From the NCBI GenBank assembly GCA_021734645.1, contig JAIPIQ010000001.1, positions 3,422 through 67,421 on the forward strand: a DNA stretch of 64,000 nt, in the 5' to 3' direction. Position numbers and translations under genes: made by a program. The notes under the pieces were generated by a model. That model ran no database searches. It had not been told where the DNA came from and saw nothing but the letters and a program-made list of their open reading frames with translations. Below, in pieces: positions 2,104-56,780 of the stretch (within the stretch, counting starts at the first letter, position 1; every line of letters begins with the position of its first letter). Source of the DNA: Fidelibacterota bacterium (GTDB taxonomy: Bacteria; Verrucomicrobiota; Kiritimatiellia; JAIPIQ01).

Positions 2104-5859
<3,756 letters not shown>

Positions 5860-5872
5860 GCGGAGGCAGACA

Positions 5873-10066
<4,194 letters not shown>

Positions 10067-10131
10067 TTGCCAGCGGGGCGCGTTCCTGTTACGTTGCGCG
10101 GCTTTGGCCACATTCAGCAAGGGAAAAGAGT

Positions 10132-10509
10132 ATGCCGACAATTAATCAGTTAGTGCGCCACGGGCGCCAGGTGACGGTAAAGAAGCGCAAGGCGCCGGCG
10201 TTGGAGAGCTGCCCGCAGCGGCGGGGCGTGTGTTTGCTGGTGAAGACGCAGACGCCCAAGAAGCCGAATTCCGCGTTGCGGAAGATCGCGCGGGTGCGGC
10301 TGACCAACGGCATGGAAGTCACTGCGTATATTCCGGGCGAGGGGCACAACCTGCAGGAGCACAGCATGGTGCTGGTGCGGGGGGGCCGCGTGAAGGATTT
10401 GCCGGGCGTGCGGTATCATATCGTGCGCGGGGCGTTGGACTGCGTGGGCGTGGACGGCCGCAATCGCGGGCGTTCCAAGTACGGCACTAAGAAACCAAAA
10501 GCGAAGTAG
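10132..10509 (+). CDS. rpsL: 30S ribosomal protein S12
   Basis: 125 aa, [12 protein letters not shown]...[10 protein letters not shown]. Confidence 0.96.
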
Positions 10510-10521
10510 GCGGGTGAAGTC

Positions 10522-10989
10522 ATGAGGAGACGTAAAGCGGAGAAGCGGGAAGTCCGGCCGGACACGAAGTTCGGGCACCCCATTTTGGGGCGCCTGGTGG
10601 TGACGGTCATGCGCTGCGGCAAGCGTTCCGTGGCGGAACGGGTGATTTACACGACCCTGGACGAGCTCAATCGCAAGACCAATGAGGACCCCCTGAAGGT
10701 TTTCGAGCAGGCCTTGGAGAACGTCAAGCCGCGCCTGGAGGTCAAGTCGCGCCGGGTGGGTGGCGCCACGTACCAGGTGCCGCTGGAAGTGCCGGCTGAG
10801 CGCCAGGTTTCCCTGGCCTTGCGCTGGATTGTCCAATATGCCAATGCGCGCAAGGGGATGGGCCTGAGCCGCGCCCTGGCCATGGAATTGCTGGATGCCT
10901 ACAACAACACGGGCAACAGTGTCAAGAAGCGGGACGATACGTACAAGATGGCCCAGGCCAACAAGGCGTTTGCCCACTACCGCTGGTAG
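10522..10989 (+). CDS. rpsG: 30S ribosomal protein S7
   Basis: 155 aa, S7-like, in str operon order. Confidence 0.94.
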   Translation: MRRRKAEKREVRPDTKFGHPILGRLVVTVMRCGKRSVAERVIYTTLDELNRKTNEDPLKVFEQALENVKPRLEVKSRRVGGATYQVPLEVPAERQVSLALRWIVQYANARKGMGLSRALAMELLDAYNNTGNSVKKRDDTYKMAQANKAFAHYRW

Positions 10990-11010
10990 GCGGACCGAGG
11001 ATACCGTGTC

Positions 11011-13137
11011 ATGAGGATGGTCGCAGAGAAACACAGCATGCGCGCCGCGCCGGCCCCCGCCGGCGGGGAAGCGGCTGAGTGTGCTCTGGCGCTGATCCGC
11101 AATTTTGGCATTGTGGCCCACATTGACGCGGGCAAGACCACGGTCTCGGAGCGGATGCTGTTTTACACCGGCAGGACGCATCGCCTGGGCGAGGTGCATG
11201 AAGGCACCGCGACCATGGATTGGATGGACCAGGAGCAGGAGCGGGGCATTACCATTGTCAGCGCGGCGACAACCTGCCAGTGGCGCGGCTGCCAGTTCAA
11301 TCTGATTGATACGCCGGGCCACGTGGATTTCACGGCGGAAGTCGAGCGATCCCTGCGGGTGCTGGACGGCGCCGTGGGCGTGTTTTGCGGGGTGGGCGGC
11401 GTGCAGCCCCAGTCGGAAACGGTCTGGCGGCAGGCGGACAAGTACCAGGTGCCGCGGCTGGCCTTTGTGAACAAGCTGGACCGCAAGGGCGCGCGGCTCG
11501 ACGCGGTGGTGGCCGAGCTGCGCAGCAAGCTGGCGGCGCCGGCCGTGGCGGTACAATTGCCCCTGGGCGCGGAAGAACACTTTGCCGGCGTGGTGGATTT
11601 GGTGACCGAAGAAGCCGTGACCTTCGACGAGGAGAGTTTTGGCGGCAAGGTGCTGCGGACCCCCGTGACCGGGGCGCTGGCGGAGCGCGCCGCGGCGGCC
11701 CGCCAACAGTTGGTGGAAGCGGTGGCGGAGTGCGACGAGGAGCTGCTCGAAGCGTACCTGGCGAATGCGCAGGTCAGTCCGGCGGCCTTGCGGGCGGCCC
11801 TGCGGCGCCAGACGCTGGCCCTGCGGATTGTGCCGGTGCTGTGCGGCGCGGCCTTCAAGAACAAGGGAATTCAGCCGCTGATGGACGCGGTGGTGGATTA
11901 CCTGCCGGCGCCCACGGAAGTGCCGCCGATCGCCGGCGTGCACCCCAAGACCGGTGAGCCGGAAACCCGGCCGGCCAGCGAGCAGGCGCCCCTGGCCGCC
12001 CTGGTCTTTAAAATCGCCACCGATCCCTTCGTGGGCAAGCTGGCCTTCGCCCGGGTCTACAGCGGGCGGCTGGCCCGCGGTCAGAATATTTTCAACCCGC
12101 GCTTGCAGAAGCGTGAGCGGGTGGGACGGATCGTGCGGCTCCACGCCAACCAACGCGAGGAAGTCGAGTCCCTGGGCGCCGGCGAAATCGGCGGCCTGGC
12201 AGGCATCAAGCTCTTTACGACCGGCGACACGCTCTGTGTCGAAAACAAGCCCCTGGTCCTCGAAACCATCCATTTCCCCGAGCCCGTGATCGCCATGGCC
12301 ATCGAGCCCCATTCCCAGGCCGACCGCGCTGACCTGGACGCGGCCCTGCGATCCTTGTCGGATGAGGACCCGACCTTCCGGATCGCGACAGATCCGGAGA
12401 CGGGTCAGACGTTGATCCGGGGGATGGGCGAGCTGCATCTGGAGGTCTTGAAGGAGCGCATGCTGCGCGAGTTCAAGGTGCGGGCGACGGCGGGCCGTCC
12501 CATGGTGGCCTACCGCGAAACGATTACGGTTCCGGCGCAGGGGACGGAGCGCTTCGAGCGCGAGCTGGGCGGGCATGGGCAATTCGCGGAAGTGACCGTG
12601 GCGGTAACGCCGCGGGACCGCGGGACCGGCAACGAGATCCAATGGCAGGTTTCGCCCGAGCTGATTCCCCACGCTTTTCGCGCCGCGGTGGGGGCGGGCA
12701 TCGAGGATGCCCTGGCCACGGGCGTGGTCGGCAATTTCCCGCTGGTGGACGTGGCAGTGGCCATTGTGGGCGGCCAGTTTCATCCGGTGGATTCCTCCGA
12801 GCTGGCGTTCCGGTCGGCGGCGGTGTTGGCGCTGCGCCAGGCGGCGCAGGCGGCGCAGCCCGTCCTGCTGGAACCCATCATGGAACTGGAAGTGATCACC
12901 CCCGAGGCGCACCTCGGGGACGTGTTGGGCGATGTGAGCGCCCGGCGCGGGCGGGTGCGCGAGTTGGACGCCCGGGCCGACGCCCAGGTAATTACAGCGG
13001 ACGTGCCGCTGGCGGAGCTGTTCGGTTATACGACGGCGCTGCGTTCGCTGACAAAAGGCCGGGCGTCCTGTACGCTCGAACCACGGTTATTCGAGGTAGT
13101 GCCGCCCGCCATGCAGGCGGCCATTTTGAACCGATGA
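11011..13137 (+). CDS. fusA: Elongation factor G (start codon uncertain: 11011 or 11038)
   Basis: G-domain AHIDAGKTT...DTPGHVDF...NKLD. 708 aa. Located after rpsG. Confidence 0.92.
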
Positions 13138-47042: not shown

Positions 47043-47127
47043 GGGCGAGTGGTGGAATTGGCAGACACGCAAGACTTAGGATCTTGTGCCGCAAGGCGTG
47101 CGGGTTCGAGTCCCGCCCCGCCCACCA
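47043..47127 (+). tRNA. tRNA-Leu (anticodon TAG), type II with a long variable arm, CCA encoded
   Basis: Manually folded. One A-C mismatch in the acceptor stem, T-loop TTCGAGT, anticodon loop CTTAGGA. Confidence 0.8.
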
Positions 47128-47176: not shown

Positions 47177-48772
47177 ATGTATGAGATGAAGTTCGCCATG
47201 CAGGGCGCGCAGGACAACGGCGAGTTCTTCACCCCGCCCGCGCTCGTCAAGACCCTCGTCAACGTCATCGAGCCGGACCACGGCATCGTCTTCGATCCCG
47301 CCTGCGGCTCAGGCGGCATGTTCGTCCAGTCCAGCCACTTCATCGAGCGCCGTGGCGACCGCGCCGCCCACAAGGTCACTTTCTACGGGCACGAGTACAA
47401 GACGAGCAACATCCGGCTGGCTCTGATGAACCTCGCCGTCCACGCCCTCGAGGGCTCGATCAAGGAGGCCAACACCTTCTATGACGATCCGCACGAGCTG
47501 TTCGGGAAGTGCGACTTCGTCATGGCCAATCCGCCGTTCAACGTGGACAAGGTGGATGCAGGGAAGATCAGGACTGACCGACGCCTGCCGTTCGGATTGC
47601 CGGGCGTGAACAAGGACAAGCAGGTCAGCAACGGGAACTACCTGTGGATCTCGTTCTTCTGGAGCTACCTGAACCAGACCGGCCGCGCCGGGTTTGTCAT
47701 GTCGTCCCAGGCCAGCAGCGCTGGCCACGGCGAGGCCGAAGTCCGCCGCAAGCTCGTCGAAACCGGCGACGTGGACGTGATGATCTCCATCCGCTCCAAC
47801 TTCTTCTACACGCGAACCGTGCCCTGCGAACTCTGGCACTTCGACAAGGGCAAGCCCGCCGCCCGGCGCGACCAGGTGCTGATGATTGACGCCCGGAACA
47901 TCTATCGCAAGGTCACCCGCAAGATTTACGACTTCTCCCCGGAGCAGCAGCAGAACCTCGCCGCCATCGTCTGGCTTTACCGCGGCCAGCCCGACCGCTT
48001 TGTCGGGCTGGTGCAGCAGTACCTCGACCGCACTCTCGCCGAAGCCGCCGCAATAGCCGCTAAGATCGAATCCTTCCGCAAAGCGTGCGCCGCCCTCGCA
48101 ACTGCCGCCGCACCCTTTTTCAAGACCCTGCCCAAAGATTCGCCCCTGCGCGATGGGATCAAGGAACGTGACGATGCGGCCAAGGTTTGTTTCCAAGGCC
48201 TGGATGATCTGATTGCGCGAGTCTCCAAGGATTGGAAGAACTCCTGCGAACCTAACCTCACCGCACAGAAGAAACGGCAGGCCAGCCTGGACGAGCTCGC
48301 CGCTGCCTGCCGGGACCTGGTGAAGGACGCCGACCTCGTCTACAAGCTCGCAGCCCGCGTCTCGGACGCAGCAGAAAAGGATGCCGGGGCCAAGGAGCAC
48401 GACGACTGGGACGGCCGCGCCATCGGGCGGCTGGAGAAAGAACTCGACGCCCGCCGCAAGGAACTGGTCGAACAACTCAAGACCGCCGCCTACTTCGAGC
48501 GGCAGGCCCACTGGCTCCTCTCGCGCTTTCCGGACGGGAAGCTCGTCGCCGTCCCCGGCCTCGTGAAGCTGGTGGACCGCAAGGAAATCGAAGCCGCCGA
48601 CTGGAGCCTCACCCCCGGTCGCTACGTCGGCGTCGCCCCCGTCGAGGACGACGAGGACTTCGACTTCGAGCAGACCCTGCGCGACATCCACACCGAACTC
48701 GCCGACCTGAACAAGGAGGCGGCGGAGTTGGCGGCGACGATTCAGAAGAACTTCGAGGGGCTGGGGATATGA
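47177..48772 (+). CDS. hsdM: Type I restriction-modification N6-adenine DNA methyltransferase subunit, lacking the N-terminal HsdM_N domain
   Basis: Begins at MYEMKF (equivalent to DMYEGLL of EcoKI M). Motif X FFTPP, motif I FDPACGSGGM, motif IV NPPF and the long coiled-coil C-terminal tail ...LTPGRYVG... Confidence 0.85.
   Translation: MYEMKFAMQGAQDNGEFFTPPALVKTLVNVIEPDHGIVFDPACGSGGMFVQSSHFIERRGDRAAHKVTFYGHEYKTSNIRLALMNLAVHALEGSIKEANTFYDDPHELFGKCDFVMANPPFNVDKVDAGKIRTDRRLPFGLPGVNKDKQVSNGNYLWISFFWSYLNQTGRAGFVMSSQASSAGHGEAEVRRKLVETGDVDVMISIRSNFFYTRTVPCELWHFDKGKPAARRDQVLMIDARNIYRKVTRKIYDFSPEQQQNLAAIVWLYRGQPDRFVGLVQQYLDRTLAEAAAIAAKIESFRKACAALATAAAPFFKTLPKDSPLRDGIKERDDAAKVCFQGLDDLIARVSKDWKNSCEPNLTAQKKRQASLDELAAACRDLVKDADLVYKLAARVSDAAEKDAGAKEHDDWDGRAIGRLEKELDARRKELVEQLKTAAYFERQAHWLLSRFPDGKLVAVPGLVKLVDRKEIEAADWSLTPGRYVGVAPVEDDEDFDFEQTLRDIHTELADLNKEAAELAATIQKNFEGLGI
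48704..48772 (+). repeat. hsdM 3'-terminal segment, copy A (authentic end). Its TGA overlaps the ATG of the next gene.
   Basis: Roughly 69 nt, repeated at 49863-49928 and 50673-50741. Confidence 0.8.
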
Positions 48773-49797
48773 GCGACGCACCCGCAAAACTTCCTGGTGA
48801 CTATGCCGCGCTACTGGTCGAGATCAAGGAACGCGTCCGCTCCGCGCAACTCGCCGCTTTCCGGGCGGTCAACAAGGGGCTGGTCGGGCTGTATTGGGAT
48901 ATCGGGCTGATGATTGTCGAACGGCAGGCCGGGGAAACATGGGGGAAGGCAATTGTCCAACAACTGGCTGGAGATTTGCAGCGGGAGTTCCCGGACGTCG
49001 GCGGGTTTTCGGCCTCCAATCTGTGGCGGATGAAGGGATTCTACGAGGCGTATCGCGCCTCCGGAAAACTCGCACCACTGGTGCGAGAAATCGCCTGGAG
49101 TCACAACCTCATCATCTTGGAGCGGTGCAATGAACCGCTGGAGCGCGAGTTCTACCTGCGGATGACCCGCAAATTCGGCTGGTCCAAGAACGTGCTGATC
49201 CACCAGATCGAGAACCAGACCTACGAAAAGAGCCTGCTCGGCCAGACCAACTTCGATAAGGTCTTGACGCCCGAATTGCGCGCCCAGGCCAAGCTGGCCG
49301 TCCGGGATGAGTACAGCTTTGACTTTCTGGAATTGAGCGCAAAGCATTCCGAACGCGAACTCGAACGGGCACTGATTGCGCGCATCGAGCATTTCCTCCG
49401 CGCCATGGGCGGCATGTTTGCCTTTGTCGGCAGTCAGTTCCGGCTGGAAGTCGAGGGCAAGGAGTATTTCATAGACCTGCTCCTGTTCCATCGCCGCCTC
49501 AAATGCTTGGTCGCCATCGAGCTCAAGATCGGCGAGTTCGAGCCCGAGTTCATCGGCAAGATGCAGTTCTATCTGACGGCCCTGGATAAGCAGGTTCGCG
49601 AGGAGGGCGAGAACCCGGCCATCGGCATCATCCTCTGCAAGGAAAAGAAACGCACCGTCGTGGAATACGCCCTCGCACCCGTCAACAAACCCATCGGTGT
49701 CGCCACCTACCAGATCGTCAAACGACTGCCCAAAGCCCTCAAAGGCCAACTCCCCAGTCCCGAACAGATCGTCAAATTGCTGGAGGAGGGCGTGTGA
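48769..49797 (+). CDS. DUF1016/YhcG-family PD-(D/E)xK nuclease inserted between hsdM and hsdS
   Basis: DUF1016_N-like N-terminus (LYWDIGLMIVERQ...GFSASNLWRMKGFY). C-terminal D...ELK core (FIDLLLFH...VAIELKIGEF). Confidence 0.82.
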   Translation: MSDAPAKLPGDYAALLVEIKERVRSAQLAAFRAVNKGLVGLYWDIGLMIVERQAGETWGKAIVQQLAGDLQREFPDVGGFSASNLWRMKGFYEAYRASGKLAPLVREIAWSHNLIILERCNEPLEREFYLRMTRKFGWSKNVLIHQIENQTYEKSLLGQTNFDKVLTPELRAQAKLAVRDEYSFDFLELSAKHSERELERALIARIEHFLRAMGGMFAFVGSQFRLEVEGKEYFIDLLLFHRRLKCLVAIELKIGEFEPEFIGKMQFYLTALDKQVREEGENPAIGIILCKEKKRTVVEYALAPVNKPIGVATYQIVKRLPKALKGQLPSPEQIVKLLEEGV

Positions 49798-49862
49798 AAG
49801 ACGGCAAATCATCCTGCCGCGCCAATGGTGCAAGACACACTGGCACAATTATATCGCCCGCC

Positions 49863-49928
49863 GCCCTGAAGACTCAGGTGGCGGAACTGGCCGCGACGAT
49901 TCAGAAGAACTTCGAGGGGCTGATGTGA
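49863..49928 (+). repeat. hsdM 3'-terminal segment, copy B (partial, diverged). Encodes ...AELAATIQKNFEGLM*
   Basis: A 30-nt identical core, gcgacgattcagaagaacttcgaggggctg, shared with copy A. Confidence 0.8.
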
Positions 49929-49940
49929 AGAGGGTCATGC

Positions 49941-50031: not shown

Positions 50032-50619
50032 ATGGAGTTCTCCATGACAACCGACGGCTTCATTCCGGCGCATGGCGGGTTCCAGGCATTGAAATCCTAT
50101 CAGAAGGCGGTCATTGTCTATGATGCCACCGTGCGATTCTGCGACCGGTTCATCGCCAAGCGTGGCGACCGCACGCGCGATCAGATGATCCAGGCGGCGC
50201 GGTCGGGCAAGCAGAACATTGTCGAGGGCAGCCAGTTCTCCGGCACATCTAAGGAAATAGAATTGAAGCTGACCAATGTGGCCCGCGCCAGCCTGGCGGA
50301 GCTGGCGGAAGACTACCGCGACTTCCTGCGCTTACGTGGCGCGGAGGAATGGCCAGCCACGCATCCGTATGCCCAACGCCTGCGCGCGCTCAACCGGCAG
50401 CCCGGCGCCGGCTATGAGACGTTTCGCAAAGGGATCGAGCATGAAGACCCACTTATCGCCGCGAACGTCATCCTGGGACTGACCCGCGTGACCTGCTTCC
50501 TGCTGGACCGCCAGCTCAAGCATCTGGAAAAGGCCTTTATTGAAGAGGGCGGTTTGCGCGAACGCATGACCCGCGCCCGCCTCGACCGCCGAGCCCAACA
50601 ACGAGGCCACACCCCATGA
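50032..50619 (+). CDS. Four-helix-bundle protein (TIGR02436 / 23S rRNA intervening-sequence protein family)
   Basis: KSYQKAV...NIVEGSQFSGTSKEIELKLTNVARASLAEL family signature. Flanked by the direct repeat TCCTTTTTGTCC (50004-50015 and 50636-50647). Confidence 0.72.
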   Translation: MEFSMTTDGFIPAHGGFQALKSYQKAVIVYDATVRFCDRFIAKRGDRTRDQMIQAARSGKQNIVEGSQFSGTSKEIELKLTNVARASLAELAEDYRDFLRLRGAEEWPATHPYAQRLRALNRQPGAGYETFRKGIEHEDPLIAANVILGLTRVTCFLLDRQLKHLEKAFIEEGGLRERMTRARLDRRAQQRGHTP

Positions 50620-50672
50620 CCCCCACCCCCTTCCGTCCTTTTTGTCCCTTGGCCCCAAATGACGCCCCGGCT

Positions 50673-50741
50673 GACCTGAACAAGGAGGCGGTGGAGTTAG
50701 CGGCAAAGATTCAGCGGAACCTCGAGGGGTCGGGGATATGA
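50673..50741 (+). repeat. hsdM 3'-terminal segment, copy C (diverged, ...DLNKEAVELAAKIQRNLEGSGI*). Its TGA overlaps the hsdS ATG.
   Basis: Aligned by eye to copy A. Confidence 0.8.
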
Positions 50742-51910
50742 AGTGGCGACCGCACCAACTCCGAGATCTCTGCTGTCAGGTAGTCTCCGGCGGAACACCG
50801 TCAACAAGCCAATCTCATTTCTATGGCGGCCCAATTCCATGGCTCCGAACACAGGAGGTCACTTTCAACCGTATAGCGGAAACAGAAATGACCATCACGG
50901 AGGATGGATTGGCGAACTCAACAGCCAAATGGGTCCCCGAGAACAGCGTCATCGTCGCGATGTACGGCAACTCTGCAGGCCGCGTTGCAACCAATTTGAT
51001 TCCCCTGACCACGAATCAAGCCTGCTGTAACCTCATTATCGATTCCAGCAAAGCTGACTACCGCTTCATCTTCTACCGGCTAATGCTCGATTACAACGTG
51101 CTGCACCAGATGGCAAAAGGGGCCGCTCAAAACAATCTCAACGCAGGACAGATCAAAGCATACACAATACAAGCGCCCTCCGTGTCTGAACAGGGCGCGA
51201 TTGCTGAAGTTGTGTCCGCCTACGACGATCTGATCGAAAACAACCGGCGGCGGATGAAGCTGCTGGAGGAGGCCGCCCGGCAGTTGTACCGCGAGTGGTT
51301 CGTCCGCCTCCGCTTTCCCGGCCATGAACGCGCCAAGATCAAGAATGGCCTGCCCGAGGGGTGGGAGAGACAACCATTGGGAGACTTGGCCGATGTCACG
51401 ATGGGCCAAAGTCCCGAATCATCGTACTACAATGAGACTGGCGAAGGGCTTCCATTCCACCAAGGCGTTGCCGATTTCGGAGATCGTTTTGTTTCTCACC
51501 GCGTATTCACCACAGCCCTGAACCGTCTTGCTGAACCCAGCGATATCCTTTGTAGCGTTCGCGCTCCGGTTGGTCGGCTCAATCTGACGCTCGACAAGAT
51601 AGTGATCGGGCGGGGCCTCTCCGCTATCCGAAGTCGCACAAACCATCAGTCGCTGTTGTTCTACCAACTGCGGAACCACTTCTTCAAAGAGGATTTGATC
51701 GGCGCGGGATCAATCTTCGCATCGGTAACGAAAGCGGAGTTTCTTCGACAGGAGATTCTTGTCCCACCCAAGCATGTAGCCGATGCATTCGAAGATGTGT
51801 CCCGCCCACTTGACGACCAACTGCGGCTACAGAATGAGCAGAACCAGAAGCTCCGCTCTGCCCGTGATTTGCTGCTGCCGAAGCTGATGAGCGGGGAGCT
51901 TGCGGTATGA
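50738..51910 (+). CDS. hsdS: Type I restriction-modification specificity subunit with two target-recognition domains
   Basis: 390 aa with a central conserved coiled-coil repeat (IENNRRRMKLLEEAARQLYREWFVRLRFPGHE) and a repeat of it at the C-terminus. Visibly lower GC than the flanks. Confidence 0.87.
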   Translation: MKWRPHQLRDLCCQVVSGGTPSTSQSHFYGGPIPWLRTQEVTFNRIAETEMTITEDGLANSTAKWVPENSVIVAMYGNSAGRVATNLIPLTTNQACCNLIIDSSKADYRFIFYRLMLDYNVLHQMAKGAAQNNLNAGQIKAYTIQAPSVSEQGAIAEVVSAYDDLIENNRRRMKLLEEAARQLYREWFVRLRFPGHERAKIKNGLPEGWERQPLGDLADVTMGQSPESSYYNETGEGLPFHQGVADFGDRFVSHRVFTTALNRLAEPSDILCSVRAPVGRLNLTLDKIVIGRGLSAIRSRTNHQSLLFYQLRNHFFKEDLIGAGSIFASVTKAEFLRQEILVPPKHVADAFEDVSRPLDDQLRLQNEQNQKLRSARDLLLPKLMSGELAV

Positions 51911-52000
51911 GAGGTATGAGGGGTCTGAGGGCCTGCGGAGCAGGGCCATTGGGCTTGTCGCCGCGGAAGCAACCGGTGTATGATTGAACCCGGGTGAGAA

Positions 52001-52780
52001 ATGAGCACGGTACGGACTATAGAATTCGTTCTTCGAGGAAAGGTCGGTGGCGTCGAACTGACGCCGCGCATGATCGGTTTGTCGCAATTTAACGAGTTCA
52101 ACCAGCAGGTCGAAGCGTTTATCGCGGGTTCCCAGCGGGGCAAGCAGAACGAAACGCATGTGGAGGTCGCCGAGGGTTCCTACAAGCTCCGGGTTACGCT
52201 GGCCGCGGCGGCGGCGCTGGCGCTCCAACCGGACCTCGTGCTCATGGCGCGCGACGACGCGCTCGGCGAGCTGGACCCGAAGCGGGCCGAGGTGGTGTCC
52301 AAGTGGCAGGCGTCCGCCCGGCGGGATGACGGCTATGAGTACGAGATCCGGCCCGATCTGGAGGCCCTGCCCAAGGTCATGTTGACGAAAAGGACCGACT
52401 ACCGGATCGGGGCGGCGAGCCCCTGGGTGACGGTCGAAAAATACCTTTTTGGGGTGGTCGAGGACATGGGTGGGGCGCAGAAGGCGAACATTCACCTGCG
52501 GTTGCGCGATACGGGGCAGACCGTGATTGTCGGCGCGTCTCAGGACTTCCTCCGCGATCAGTCCGAAAACCGTGTCTATCGGCAGGCGCTCTTGCGCGTC
52601 AAGGCTGAACAGCACTTCAAAACCGGTCAGTTGCGCAATGTCCGCCTCCTTGCGTTCGAGGATTACGCTCCCTCCTACGACGAGAACGCGCTCAATGCGT
52701 TTTCGTACCAGGGAACTCAGGCGTGGCGCGACATTCCGGATGCCGTGGCTTGGGTCCGCGAGCAGAGGGGAGGTCGCTGA
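52001..52780 (+). CDS. Uncharacterised 259-aa protein embedded between hsdS and hsdR. No recognisable family. Appears to have an internal two-fold repeat.
   Basis: Intact ORF, co-oriented. Its stop lies 3-28 nt before the hsdR start. Confidence 0.5.
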   Translation: MSTVRTIEFVLRGKVGGVELTPRMIGLSQFNEFNQQVEAFIAGSQRGKQNETHVEVAEGSYKLRVTLAAAAALALQPDLVLMARDDALGELDPKRAEVVSKWQASARRDDGYEYEIRPDLEALPKVMLTKRTDYRIGAASPWVTVEKYLFGVVEDMGGAQKANIHLRLRDTGQTVIVGASQDFLRDQSENRVYRQALLRVKAEQHFKTGQLRNVRLLAFEDYAPSYDENALNAFSYQGTQAWRDIPDAVAWVREQRGGR

Positions 52781-52808
52781 TGGGTGCCGGGGATTGAACG
52801 GCGTTCTG

Positions 52809-55800
52809 ATGGCCTACACCGACATCAACAGCGAGGACCGGCTGGTGCAGGTGACCTTCGCCGAGCATCTGGAACGGCAGCTTGGTTGGGAGAGCGTGTT
52901 TGCCTGGAATGAGGAAACCTTCGGGCCTAACGGTACGCTGGGGCGGGCAGACACGCGCGAGGTGGTCCTGACCCGCGATTTGCGGGCGGCTGTGGGCCGA
53001 CTCAACCCCGACCTGCCCGCGACGGCCCTGGACGAGGCAGTACGCACGATGTCGCGACACGACTTCACGCGGTCGTTGCTACAACACAACCAGGATTTCC
53101 ACGGCTTCATGCGCGACGGCGTGCCGGTCTCCTATCGCGACGCGCAGGGAGTTCTGCGCGAGGAACGGGCGCGGGTGCTTGACTTCCGCAACGCGGCGAA
53201 CAACCGGTTCCTGGCGGTGCGCGAGCTGAAGCTCACCAGTCTGCGCATGCCGAGCTACAACCGCCGGGCGGACCTGGTCTACTTCGTCAACGGCCTGCCG
53301 CTGGTGTTTATTGAGCTGAAAGCCGTTTACAAGAATATTCGGGCCGCTTTTGATGGCAACCTGCGCGATTATATGGACGAGCACATCGTCGCCCACGCCT
53401 TTCATCACAATGCGTTTCTGGTCGTCAGCAACGGACACCGCGCCCGGTACGGAGCGATCACCAGTGCGTGGGACCATTTCGCGGAGTGGAAACGCCTCGA
53501 TGAGGCGGACAAGGGCAGCGTCGAGGCAGAGGTGCTCCTGAACGGGATGCTGGCGCATGACCGCCTGCTGGACATTGTCGAGAATTTCATCCTGTTCGAC
53601 GCCAGCAAACCGGGCCAGACCCGCAAGATCGTGGCACGCAACCACCAGGTTCACGGGGTCAACCAGGCGGTGGCGGCGGTGCGGCGGCAGGAGGAGTTGA
53701 AACAGGCGTTTCCGCCTGAGCTGCGCCTGAAGTCCCGCACCATTGAACTGCTGCCGCGCATGGCGGCCGAAGTCTCGCCAAGGGGCGACGCCCTGTACGA
53801 AGATCCGGTCGTCGAGTGGCCCGAGATGGCCGAGTCATTGAGCCTGCTTAAATACGTCGAACCGGCCCATCCGGACCTGGGAAGACTGGGCGTGTTCTGG
53901 CATACGCAGGGCAGCGGCAAGTCCTACTCGATGGCCTTTTTCGCGGAGAAGGTCCGACGCACGATATCGGCCAAGTTCACCTTCCTGCTGATGACCGACC
54001 GCCAGGATCTCGACGGCCAGATATTCGACACGTTCCGCGGCTGCGGCGTGGTGGACGAGAAGTCCCCCCGCGCCGCGACGGGCGAAGATCTCAAGCATCT
54101 CCTGGGAGAGAACCACCGCTATATCTTCAGCCTGATCCACAAGTTCAACCAGGATGTGGACCCGCGCAAGCCCTACAGTCCGCGGGACGACATCATCGTG
54201 ATCTCCGACGAGGCCCACCGGACGCAGGCCGGCAAACTGGCCCGCAACATGCGGCTGGCTCTGCCGAATGCCTCCTTTATCGGGTTCACCGGCACACCCC
54301 TGTTCAAGCACGACCACCTCACCCGGCGCATTTTCGGCACCTACGTCTCGCGCTACGACTTCAAACGGTCCGAGCAGGACGGCTCGACCGTCAAACTCGT
54401 GTACGAGAACCGGGGCGAGAAACTGGGCCTGGCCCGGCTCGACCTTAACGACCGCATCGCCGCCGCCATTGCCAAAGCTGAACTGAACCCCGACGAGGAA
54501 CTCCTGCTGGAGAAACTGCTCGGGCAGGACTACGAGGTGATCACGGCCCGCAATCGCCTCAATAAAATCGCATTCGATTTCGTCGAACACTGTGCCACCC
54601 GGTGGGAATCGGGAAAATCCATGTTCGTCTGCCTGGATAAGATCACCTGCGGCCGCATGCTCAAACGGGTCAGGCGCCTCTGGAAACTCAAATTGGCGCG
54701 GGTGCAGCAGGTGCTCAACCGCAAGCAAACCGCGCTGGCGACCCAGACCAACGAAGACCATCGTGAACGCATTGCAAAAGAAGTGGCTTGGTTGCGAGGA
54801 CAGGCGAACTGGCTGCGGGAGACGATGGTTGAACTCGTGGTATCCGAGGGGCAGAACGAAATCGCCGACTTCAAGAAGTGGGGGATTGACATCCTGCCGC
54901 ACCGGGCGCTGATGAAGCAGGGGTTCGAGACCCCGGACGGCAAGCGGGTGGATGTGGAAACCGCTTTCAAGGATCCGGCCCATCCGTTCCGCGTGGCGAT
55001 TGTCTGCGCCATGTGGCTGACCGGTTTCGATGTCGAATGTCTCTCTACGCTGTACATAGACAAGCCCATGAAGGCGCACACGCTCATGCAGGCCATCGCG
55101 CGGGCCAACCGGGTTTATCCCGGCAAGGATTTCGGCCTGATTGGGGCAAAGGGCTTCGCCAAAATTGCGGCGCTCGCCGACGGCGTGGAAGCGGTCACCA
55201 GCGCCCGAGACGAGGGACGGCGGCGGTTCGAAATCATGGCGCGCCAGGTCTTCGACCGTTTCAAGGCGCTGCTCATGGAACCGGCCGCCTTTGCTTTCGC
55301 AGAGCGGCACGACAACATTGAGGCGATTTACAAGAAACTTCAGGAACGGCGCGATACCGCTGACGTTACCGAGTTGCTCAAGGAACTACAGCGGGTGGTC
55401 AACGAGGCCATTCGTGCCGCCGCCCCCGGCGCCGACCAGGCGGATGCCAAACTTTACGACTTGAGCGCCGTGGACCTGGAAAAACTGCGCGCCGAGTTTG
55501 CCAAGAAGGCCACGCACAAGGCCACGGTCCTGGAGGACATCCGGCAGATCGTCGAAAAGAAACTGGCGCAGATGCTCGCCCGGAACCCGCAGCGCATGGA
55601 CTATTACAAGAAGTACTCCGAAATCATTGCCGACTACAACCACGACAAGGATCGGGTTACGATTGAAGAAACCTTTGCCCGGCTGGTTGACTTGGCTGCG
55701 AGCCTGGACGCCGAATCCCGGCGCGCCGCCGAAGAAGGCCTGAGCGAAGAAGAATACGCCCTGTTCTGCCTGCTACAGAAGGACCGTATCAGCAAGGCTG

Positions 55801-56045
55801 ACCGGGACCGGATCAAACTCGCCAGCCGCCAGCTCTACGATTCGCTCCGAGCATTGCTCGCCCGACGCGAGCAATGGACCCAGAAGGAACAGACGCAGGC
55901 GGAAGTCGAGACCCTGATTCTGGACCACCTGTTTGTGGCGCTGCCGACGCCACCCTACACGGAAGCAGAGAAACAGGCTGCGGCAAAACAGGTCTACCAG
56001 TTCGTCTGGCAGCAATCCGCCAGTGGGGTGTTTGTGGCGGCTTGA
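52809..56045 (+). CDS. hsdR: Type I restriction enzyme endonuclease/helicase subunit (alternative TTG start at 52794)
   Basis: HsdR_N-like N-terminus, Walker A HTQGSGKS, DEAH VISDEAHRTQ, roughly 1078 aa. Confidence 0.9.
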   Translation: MAYTDINSEDRLVQVTFAEHLERQLGWESVFAWNEETFGPNGTLGRADTREVVLTRDLRAAVGRLNPDLPATALDEAVRTMSRHDFTRSLLQHNQDFHGFMRDGVPVSYRDAQGVLREERARVLDFRNAANNRFLAVRELKLTSLRMPSYNRRADLVYFVNGLPLVFIELKAVYKNIRAAFDGNLRDYMDEHIVAHAFHHNAFLVVSNGHRARYGAITSAWDHFAEWKRLDEADKGSVEAEVLLNGMLAHDRLLDIVENFILFDASKPGQTRKIVARNHQVHGVNQAVAAVRRQEELKQAFPPELRLKSRTIELLPRMAAEVSPRGDALYEDPVVEWPEMAESLSLLKYVEPAHPDLGRLGVFWHTQGSGKSYSMAFFAEKVRRTISAKFTFLLMTDRQDLDGQIFDTFRGCGVVDEKSPRAATGEDLKHLLGENHRYIFSLIHKFNQDVDPRKPYSPRDDIIVISDEAHRTQAGKLARNMRLALPNASFIGFTGTPLFKHDHLTRRIFGTYVSRYDFKRSEQDGSTVKLVYENRGEKLGLARLDLNDRIAAAIAKAELNPDEELLLEKLLGQDYEVITARNRLNKIAFDFVEHCATRWESGKSMFVCLDKITCGRMLKRVRRLWKLKLARVQQVLNRKQTALATQTNEDHRERIAKEVAWLRGQANWLRETMVELVVSEGQNEIADFKKWGIDILPHRALMKQGFETPDGKRVDVETAFKDPAHPFRVAIVCAMWLTGFDVECLSTLYIDKPMKAHTLMQAIARANRVYPGKDFGLIGAKGFAKIAALADGVEAVTSARDEGRRRFEIMARQVFDRFKALLMEPAAFAFAERHDNIEAIYKKLQERRDTADVTELLKELQRVVNEAIRAAAPGADQADAKLYDLSAVDLEKLRAEFAKKATHKATVLEDIRQIVEKKLAQMLARNPQRMDYYKKYSEIIADYNHDKDRVTIEETFARLVDLAASLDAESRRAAEEGLSEEEYALFCLLQKDRISKADRDRIKLASRQLYDSLRALLARREQWTQKEQTQAEVETLILDHLFVALPTPPYTEAEKQAAAKQVYQFVWQQSASGVFVAA

Positions 56046-56188: not shown

Positions 56189-56264
56189 GCCCCTATCGTC
56201 TAGTGGCCCAGGACGCCGGGTTCTCATCCCGGAAACAGGGGTTCAATTCCCCTTGGGGGTGCCA
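56189..56264 (+). tRNA. tRNA-Glu (anticodon CTC), CCA encoded
   Basis: Manually folded. D-arm GTCTAGTGGCCCAGGAC is typical of tRNA-Glu. T-loop TTCAATT. Confidence 0.75.
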
Positions 56265-56673: not shown

Positions 56674-56748
56674 AGGCGCGGTAGCCAAGTGGTAAGGCGG
56701 AGGTCTGCAAAACCTTTATTCAGCGGTTCGAATCCGCTCCGCGCCTCC
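56674..56748 (+). tRNA. tRNA-Cys (anticodon GCA), CCA encoded
   Basis: Manually folded. Acceptor GGCGCGG/CCGCGCC, anticodon loop CTGCAAA. Confidence 0.8.
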
Positions 56749-56780
56749 AATTATTCCCTTTTCACCCGAAAGGAAGCGCA

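Follow-up and report, generated by a model that had tools for sequence, protein, structure and literature searches.

A probable antitoxin-like partner of a PIN nuclease, orphaned at the hsdS-hsdR junction of a decaying Type I restriction locus

What is a gene of no recognizable kind doing inside a Type I restriction-modification (R-M) operon? The question is raised by an open reading frame (ORF) of 259 amino acids (aa), here called ORF259, that lies between hsdS and hsdR in a 64-kb stretch of contig JAIPIQ010000001.1 (Fidelibacterota bacterium, assembly GCA_021734645.1); ‘the window’ below means this whole stretch. The first-pass annotation of the window saw an intact frame, co-oriented with its hsd neighbours, stopping close to the hsdR start and assignable to no family, and proposed a novel R-M-linked accessory or defence gene. 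Coordinates and context hold (Table 1): 28 nucleotides (nt) separate the ORF259 stop from the hsdR ATG, and no terminator-like site lies within them. The answer favoured here, which we hold to be moderately probable as a whole, is that, of a widespread two-gene cassette with a PIN nuclease, only the first gene, ORF259, survives here: an antitoxin-like partner, orphaned in a decaying R-M locus. The observed steps beneath that answer are, taken together, close to certain: ORF259 relatives are paired with a PIN gene; the PIN protein keeps its D-E-D-D residues; the cassette is mobile, with an address at the hsdS-hsdR junction; a deletion of ~536 nt took the PIN gene out of this locus; and the HsdM of the same operon has lost its N-terminal domain.

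The place to begin is the protein itself. Direct assignment to a family was attempted and rejected: Pfam, PADLOC and PHROGs gave no match at E<=1, NCBIfam gave far-sub-threshold noise only, and the PDB sequences gave nothing, whether the query was the single sequence (phmmer) or a profile. In this respect the first reading was right. Relatives are nonetheless abundant. A word-indexed protein search returned 231 homologues at E<=1e-3, nearly all of them 256-262 aa long and unnamed or ‘hypothetical’, from Verrucomicrobiota, Lentisphaerota and other metagenome-assembled genomes (MAGs) of the PVC group; an identical protein (P0001) carries the NCBI label of a ‘Candidatus Marinimicrobia bacterium’ MAG. 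An exhaustive phmmer search of 1.84 billion representatives gave 502 clusters (50% identity) of relatives from several phyla, 85 of them at E<=1e-30; these proteins, ~258 aa long, can be aligned over their full length at identities as low as ~25%. In an alignment of 83 sequences, S60, G157, G158 and R256 are invariant, and the conserved motifs are GS, DPKRA, WQ, WVxVExYLxG..D.GG...N.H, NxLY and TGELR, with AWxDV.D...WVxxxRG at the C terminus. The ratio of nonsynonymous to synonymous substitution rates (dN/dS) between ORF259 and its nearest relative, in locus L010, is 0.14. Many homologues, conserved length and a low dN/dS together mean that ORF259 is more than a chance ORF; it belongs to a large family that, by these searches, has no described counterpart.

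The family has a constant companion. In the first loci inspected (L001-L009), a gene of ~170 aa with a Pfam PIN domain lies directly 3' of the ORF259 homologue, at a gap of 0-4 nt; PF01850 scored above threshold in three of the four partners tested. Two surveys, one from each side of the pair, bear this out. With one genome taken per species, the ORF259 side provided 38 loci, 35 of them informative; a PIN gene comes next in 33 (intact in 31, frameshifted in L034 and L044) and is absent from two (L025 and L040). On the PIN side, in metagenomes, a member of the ORF259 family stands directly upstream in 73 of 74 informative loci. In nearly all loci the stop codon of the ORF259-family gene overlaps the PIN start (TGATG or ATGA) or lies no more than 6 nt from it. 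Members as distant as 27-31% identity still have the partner (Saprospiraceae MAG, Bacteroidota; locus by an MmeI-type R-M system; polysaccharide gene cluster), and a close one at ~85% identity, P0004, retains a downstream gene of 176 aa on its short contig. Across several phyla, then, genes of the ORF259 family and of this PIN subfamily nearly always lie side by side in one orientation, with translational coupling. We found no description of the ORF259 family in the literature.

The partner has the residues expected of a nuclease: D8, E49, D98 and D117, invariant in the PIN alignment, are the PIN catalytic quartet (D-E-D-D). It also has a conserved C-terminal extension of ~45 aa that ends in an acidic tail. 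Its searches gave no significant PADLOC match, and its profile found no solved VapC at a significant E-value.

The pair travels. Its surroundings are scattered, ranging from housekeeping to defence-island settings, and include an MmeI R-M system, a dCTP-deaminase-like gene or HipA as adjoining genes. One metagenome contig (L082) carries two complete cassettes, at 1489-2867 and 4425-5764, ~3 kb apart. Among 72,556 plasmids there is a single match (L137), at 3326-4591 of Bordetella bronchiseptica plasmid pA (NZ_CP132331.1), a 39-kb replicon of almost entirely hypothetical genes, in which RefSeq calls both cassette genes ‘hypothetical protein’. A phage origin was considered and rejected: the ORF259 family has no match in 50,697 phage records and occurs in IMG/VR on one contig only, so the cassette is no gene family of phages.

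A neighbourhood census covered 119 loci, 71 of which have enough downstream sequence (57 after dereplication). An hsdR gene follows within 1.5 kb on the same strand in 27 of the 71, or 21 of the 57 dereplicated cassettes (37%), and the 27 comprise two unrelated hsdR lineages, 21 of the window type and six of the L001 type. By Pfam census of nearest neighbours, HsdR domains lead downstream (14/70), ahead of DNA methyltransferases and Fic, and Methylase_S leads upstream (12/66), ahead of MutS_V and N6_Mtase; the remaining neighbours are housekeeping-type singletons. The cassette is mobile, and the place where it most often sits is the junction of hsdS and hsdR in Type I R-M operons. Recurrence of homologues in hsd operons was a check that the first-pass annotation had set for its proposal, and it came out in favour for the two-gene cassette as a whole; nor was any of the findings made that the annotation had named as refuting it. 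With that recurrence, and with no described family to absorb ORF259, the idea of an undescribed, R-M-linked family is kept. What has to be given up is the picture of a stand-alone accessory or defence gene: the protein is half of a PIN cassette, and the nuclease half has been deleted here. As a separate observation, proteins with MutS domain V are the second commonest upstream neighbours, at five of 66 dereplicated loci, and may mark a second recurrent insertion site.

Nuclease genes inside hsd operons have precedents. PrrC, of the EcoprrI system, is an RNA-targeting (anticodon) nuclease encoded within an hsd operon (Type Ic) and kept latent there; it suggests a model of the nuclease as a back-up that comes into play when a phage disables restriction. 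PrrC shows no sequence or domain similarity to ORF259 or to the PIN partner, and its architecture differs: it is a single protein with an ABC-ATPase-like N-terminal domain, masked by the Hsd complex itself, whereas the cassette has a dedicated partner. A closer parallel in position is DarTG2, found between hsdS and hsdR in the RRDM island of enteropathogenic Escherichia coli, a slot that the authors of that study regard as a probable hotspot of recombination for defence systems (PMC12255303). DarTG2 is also a two-gene toxin-antitoxin or defence module; its proteins are unrelated to those of the cassette (DarT is an ADP-ribosyltransferase, DarG a macrodomain protein), and its defence has been demonstrated by experiment, whereas a defence role of the cassette is a proposal. 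The cassette would be a second independent case, after DarTG2, of the hsdS-hsdR junction collecting such modules. An earlier survey (Matelska et al. 2017, PMC5499597) noted PIN-like nucleases in transcriptional coupling with subunits of Type I R-M, at times with no recognisable antitoxin. The ORF259 family is not described in it, and in the loci studied here a conserved 259-aa protein fills the slot of the ‘missing antitoxin’. With the described R-M-embedded systems as a group (PrrC, RloC, DarTG, Abi) the cassette has its recurrent hsd location in common, and sequence membership in none of them (PADLOC, PHROG).

In the window this companion is missing: a tblastn search of all 64 kb finds no homologue of PIN. 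How it was lost can be read from L010, the closest relative, which has the same operon and an ORF259 at 83% aa identity and an HsdM at 87%. By blastn, window 51924-52790 is syntenic with L010 7927-8790, and window 52796 onward with L010 9327 onward; homology past the junction resumes ~14 nt 5' of the hsdR ATG. What the window keeps of the PIN gene is its first 11 nt, ATGGGTGCCGG, at 52780-52790, which DNA alignment shows to be homologous to the beginning of the PIN genes of L010 and L011. The PIN gene of this window has therefore been removed by a deletion of ~536 nt, and ORF259, its partner gene gone, is an orphan. The remark in the first reading that ORF259 has no toxin-antitoxin motifs is accordingly true of the protein and too narrow for the locus, since the conserved partner of its family is a toxin-type PIN nuclease of which those 11 nt are left.

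The orphan itself has no look of decay about it. Compared with the L010 copy, which has 16 lineage-specific substitutions, the window copy has nine, none of them at an invariant position. Selection has been purifying, and changes specific to the window are not in excess. The orphan may be a remnant of recent date, or it may be kept, for instance to give immunity against related toxins.

A predicted structure gives some idea of what kind of partner the cassette encodes. The AlphaFold2 model built from the 83-sequence alignment is a confident one (mean predicted local distance difference test score, pLDDT, 92.6). It has a ferredoxin-like alpha+beta N-terminal domain (~1-135), a five-stranded OB barrel (~140-220) and two C-terminal helices (228-255); the C-terminal helical tail is conserved and ends W..R-G. 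By isoelectric point (pI) the OB segment is basic, at 9.2, and the C-terminal segment acidic, at 4.9. None of the canonical antitoxin DNA-binding domains (RHH, AbrB, HTH or Phd) is present in the model. The first-pass annotation had suspected two similar halves, a duplicated beta-rich domain; this was not borne out. Profile-profile comparison of the halves (hhalign) gives a probability of 2-5%, BLASTP finds nothing between them, and the model shows two different folds, and internal duplication was rejected. The OB domain matches the fold of single-strand nucleic-acid binders, namely SSB, PriB, RPA and IF1, at identities of only 3-15%. ORF259 shares the five-stranded OB barrel with the SSB family and is not a sequence member of it (no Pfam match, e.g. 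PF00436, at E<=1); its additional N- and C-terminal domains have no counterpart in SSB, PriB, RPA or IF1.

The reading of the pair preferred here is a module of the type II toxin-antitoxin or abortive-infection kind. The features that suggest it are the gene order, the overlapping start, the intact PIN quartet, mobility over phyla and onto a plasmid, tandem duplication and residence at defence-rich sites. Several of these are shared with VapBC: there too a PIN protein has four conserved acidic residues (in the related loci, the gene being deleted from the window), the partner gene is immediately upstream, co-oriented and translationally coupled to PIN, and the unit is mobile, sometimes multi-copy and scattered over genomes, here with a plasmid as well. 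The differences lie in the proteins. VapBC antitoxins are ~70-100 aa long with an RHH, AbrB, HTH or Phd domain; ORF259, at 259 aa, combines a ferredoxin-like domain, an OB-fold and a helical tail, and the PIN partner differs by its ~45-aa C-terminal extension and acidic tail. The C-terminal tail with its invariant Arg does recall the C-terminal toxin-binding segments of VapB and FitA antitoxins.

On this reading the PIN protein would be a latent RNase or nuclease, which the 259-aa protein would bind and restrain, or direct; the invariant C-terminal tail (W251...R256-G257) would be the likely contact with PIN, and nucleic-acid binding or sensing would fall to the ferredoxin-like domain and the basic OB-fold. 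By lying within hsd operons the cassette would stabilise the R-M locus or else give phage defence a second layer, a suicidal one. The module of this genome should no longer be able to act as a nuclease system, and the orphan would be an undecayed remnant or a copy kept to neutralise related incoming PIN toxins. That the cassette acts by a toxin-antitoxin-like mechanism is, on these sequence features, a little likelier true than false; that the family is a PIN module of toxin-antitoxin or abortive-infection type embedded in Type I R-M, with the window copy a degenerate remnant of it, is a conclusion we would call reasonably, not strongly, probable.

Several observations weigh against the toxin-antitoxin reading. 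The partner is atypically large for an antitoxin and has no classical antitoxin DNA-binding fold; neither it nor the PIN protein matches any PADLOC model significantly; and ~60% of cassettes are not beside hsd genes. Nor does the pattern of gene loss help. The window, L025 and L034 have an intact ORF259 and a lost or broken PIN gene, with L040 a partial fourth case (36 loci including the window), and the converse, an apparently intact PIN gene beside a broken ORF259-family gene, occurs in three of 74 loci. In L117 (108-935), an in-frame TGA falls at the R84 position, with PIN present; in L131 (660-1017), residues ~39-214 are internally deleted, again with PIN present. Unless they are sequencing errors, these two are counter-examples to strict toxin-antitoxin dependence. 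In L076, 4323-4880 is identical to L075 5953-6510 from 48 nt 5' of the PIN gene onward and unrelated to it before a sharp breakpoint; no more than the final 13 codons of its ORF259-family gene (PDAAQWVREVRGG) are left, reading in frame with a short ORF of foreign sequence. The contig may be an assembly chimera; if it is natural, it hints that what is needed beside PIN is the C-terminal tail. An asymmetry of loss was at first accepted as support for a toxin-antitoxin pair and then dropped when the PIN loci with a broken ORF259 came to light; since decay runs in both directions at similarly low rates, it is not used as evidence here. Nor can the low dN/dS be read as maintenance of the orphan after the deletion, as dS between the window and L010 copies is 0.62 and the deletion cannot be dated.

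The main rival supposes instead a two-subunit nuclease, in which the 259-aa protein is an RNA- or single-stranded-DNA-binding adaptor (ferredoxin- or RRM-like plus OB-fold) that gives PIN its substrate. The complex would be an effector working alongside Type I R-M, for instance by degrading phage transcripts or single-stranded DNA intermediates, and the adaptor left alone in the window would be a functionless remnant. A basic OB segment whose fold matches nucleic-acid binders of the SSB, PriB, RPA and IF1 types suits such a protein, as does the want of a canonical antitoxin DNA-binding domain; strict co-occurrence fits an obligate complex equally well, and the three PIN loci with broken partners, if real, would be lethal under a strict toxin-antitoxin model. 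Those three lie on short metagenome contigs, however, and may be assembly or sequencing errors (L076 is the one identical to L075 up to its breakpoint). A small nuclease gene in second place with an overlapping start, mobility, tandem duplication and scattered contexts are moreover classic toxin-antitoxin features, and selection on the orphan is not relaxed relative to its PIN-bearing sister. We regard the adaptor as possible and on balance unlikely. Much less probable is that ORF259 has a role of its own in Type I R-M, as a restriction-alleviation factor, regulator or Hsd assembly factor, and is kept beside hsdR for that independently of PIN. Tight spacing to hsdR, recurrent placement in hsd operons and an ORF259 that is intact and conservatively evolving after PIN loss are what one would expect of such a factor. 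The family, however, lives largely elsewhere: the ~60% of cassettes that lie far from hsd genes still have the PIN partner, it is PIN and not Hsd that co-varies with ORF259, the association spans two unrelated hsdR lineages, and the R-M system that would be served here has itself lost the HsdM N-terminal domain.

It is also conceivable that the missing PIN gene is an artefact of MAG assembly and that the real organism has a complete cassette. The source is a MAG contig, and collapsed or chimeric joins do occur in such assemblies, as L076 and L075 may show; against this, colinear homology to L010 runs long on both sides of the junction (867 nt upstream, 1537 nt downstream), the join has no Ns or repeats, and two independent loci, L025 and L040, have no PIN gene either. 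We consider an artefact very improbable. The antitoxin-like orphan remains the preferred reading, and it can be carried further than we would defend with any confidence. The ORF259-PIN pair might be an anti-phage system that guards Type I restriction: a PIN RNase would be held latent by the ferredoxin-like/OB-fold protein and freed when that protein detects single-stranded nucleic acid of a phage, or when Hsd is disabled by phage anti-restriction, following the logic of PrrC with a dedicated sensor subunit; the solo copy would be no dead remnant but kept as immunity against related incoming PIN toxins. As a complete scheme this is speculative, and we think it improbable as stated. Short of that, a family of ~500 clusters in several phyla, with no Pfam, NCBIfam, PADLOC or PHROG model, is now tied to a PIN nuclease as its fixed partner, and it provides a concrete candidate for a new toxin-antitoxin or abortive-infection module with an unusual OB-fold partner.

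Table 1. Features of the hsd region of the window (positions in window coordinates)
Feature	Position	Strand	Remarks
tRNA-Leu	47043-47127	+	Abuts truncated hsdM
hsdM, 5'-truncated	47177-48772	+	Lacks N-terminal 163 residues (HsdM_N); homology from 47180
DUF1016_N + YhcG_C PDDEXK nuclease gene	48769-49797	+	Between hsdM and hsdS, overlaps hsdM stop; PADLOC candidate PDC-S02, E 1e-147
Four-helix-bundle protein, ‘23S rRNA intervening sequence protein’ type	50032-50619	+	Between hsdM and hsdS; 4helix_suffix (TIGR04258)
hsdS, Type I specificity subunit	50738-51910	+	Pfam Methylase_S, 1.2e-27
Weak sigma-70-like promoter match	51955-51984	+	TTGTCG-18-TATGAT, just 5' of ORF259; consensus match only
ORF259	52001-52780	+	Intact, ATG-initiated, 259 aa
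PIN-gene remnant	52780-52797	+	ATG overlaps ORF259 stop (TGATG); 5-codon ORF MGAGD*
Deletion junction	52791-52795	.	5 nt where L010 has 536 nt (PIN gene body and 3' spacer)
hsdR, Type I restriction subunit	52809-56045	+	Intact, 1078 aa; Pfam HSDR_N, SWI2_SNF2, ResIII, T1R_D3-like, T1RH-like_C
tRNA-Glu	56189-56264		Just downstream of hsdR
tRNA-Cys	56675-56749		Just downstream of hsdR

The operon around the orphan has suffered as well (Table 1), and the locus illustrates the decay and shuffling of defence islands, not a working new defence gene. By BLASTP, the 87% identity of HsdM to its L010 counterpart covers only residues 164-693 of the latter; Pfam finds HsdM_N in the L010 protein and not in that of the window, and no fragment of the hsdM N terminus lies elsewhere in the 64 kb. 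In L010 the same tRNA-Leu gene is ~1.9 kb upstream of hsdM and inverted, and this displacement places a rearrangement breakpoint inside hsdM. Given the truncation, the R-M system of the window is probably non-functional, even with hsdR and hsdS still intact. Of the sigma-70-like sites in the region, including the one just 5' of ORF259, the count is not above shuffled expectation.

Traces of exchange are visible on the hsdS side too. The last 72 nt of hsdM are present in three copies, 81-86% identical, at 48701-48772, 49860-49931 and 50670-50741; the two inserts between hsdM and hsdS are flanked by them, and the third overlaps the start of hsdS. Three diverged copies bracketing inserts suggest cassette exchange by recombination between hsd operons, and they look like the footprint of such swapping between different operons. 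The island as a whole is bracketed by tRNA genes (Leu on one side, Glu and Cys on the other), which suggests an integration hotspot. At the corresponding places the relative L010 carries other cargo, namely an ORF with an IS200-like Y1 transposase domain in the hsdM-hsdS slot (5269-6375) and a DUF4326 gene between hsdS and the cassette (7487-7795); its hsdR is divided into two ORFs (9340-12185) by an apparent frameshift near 10866.

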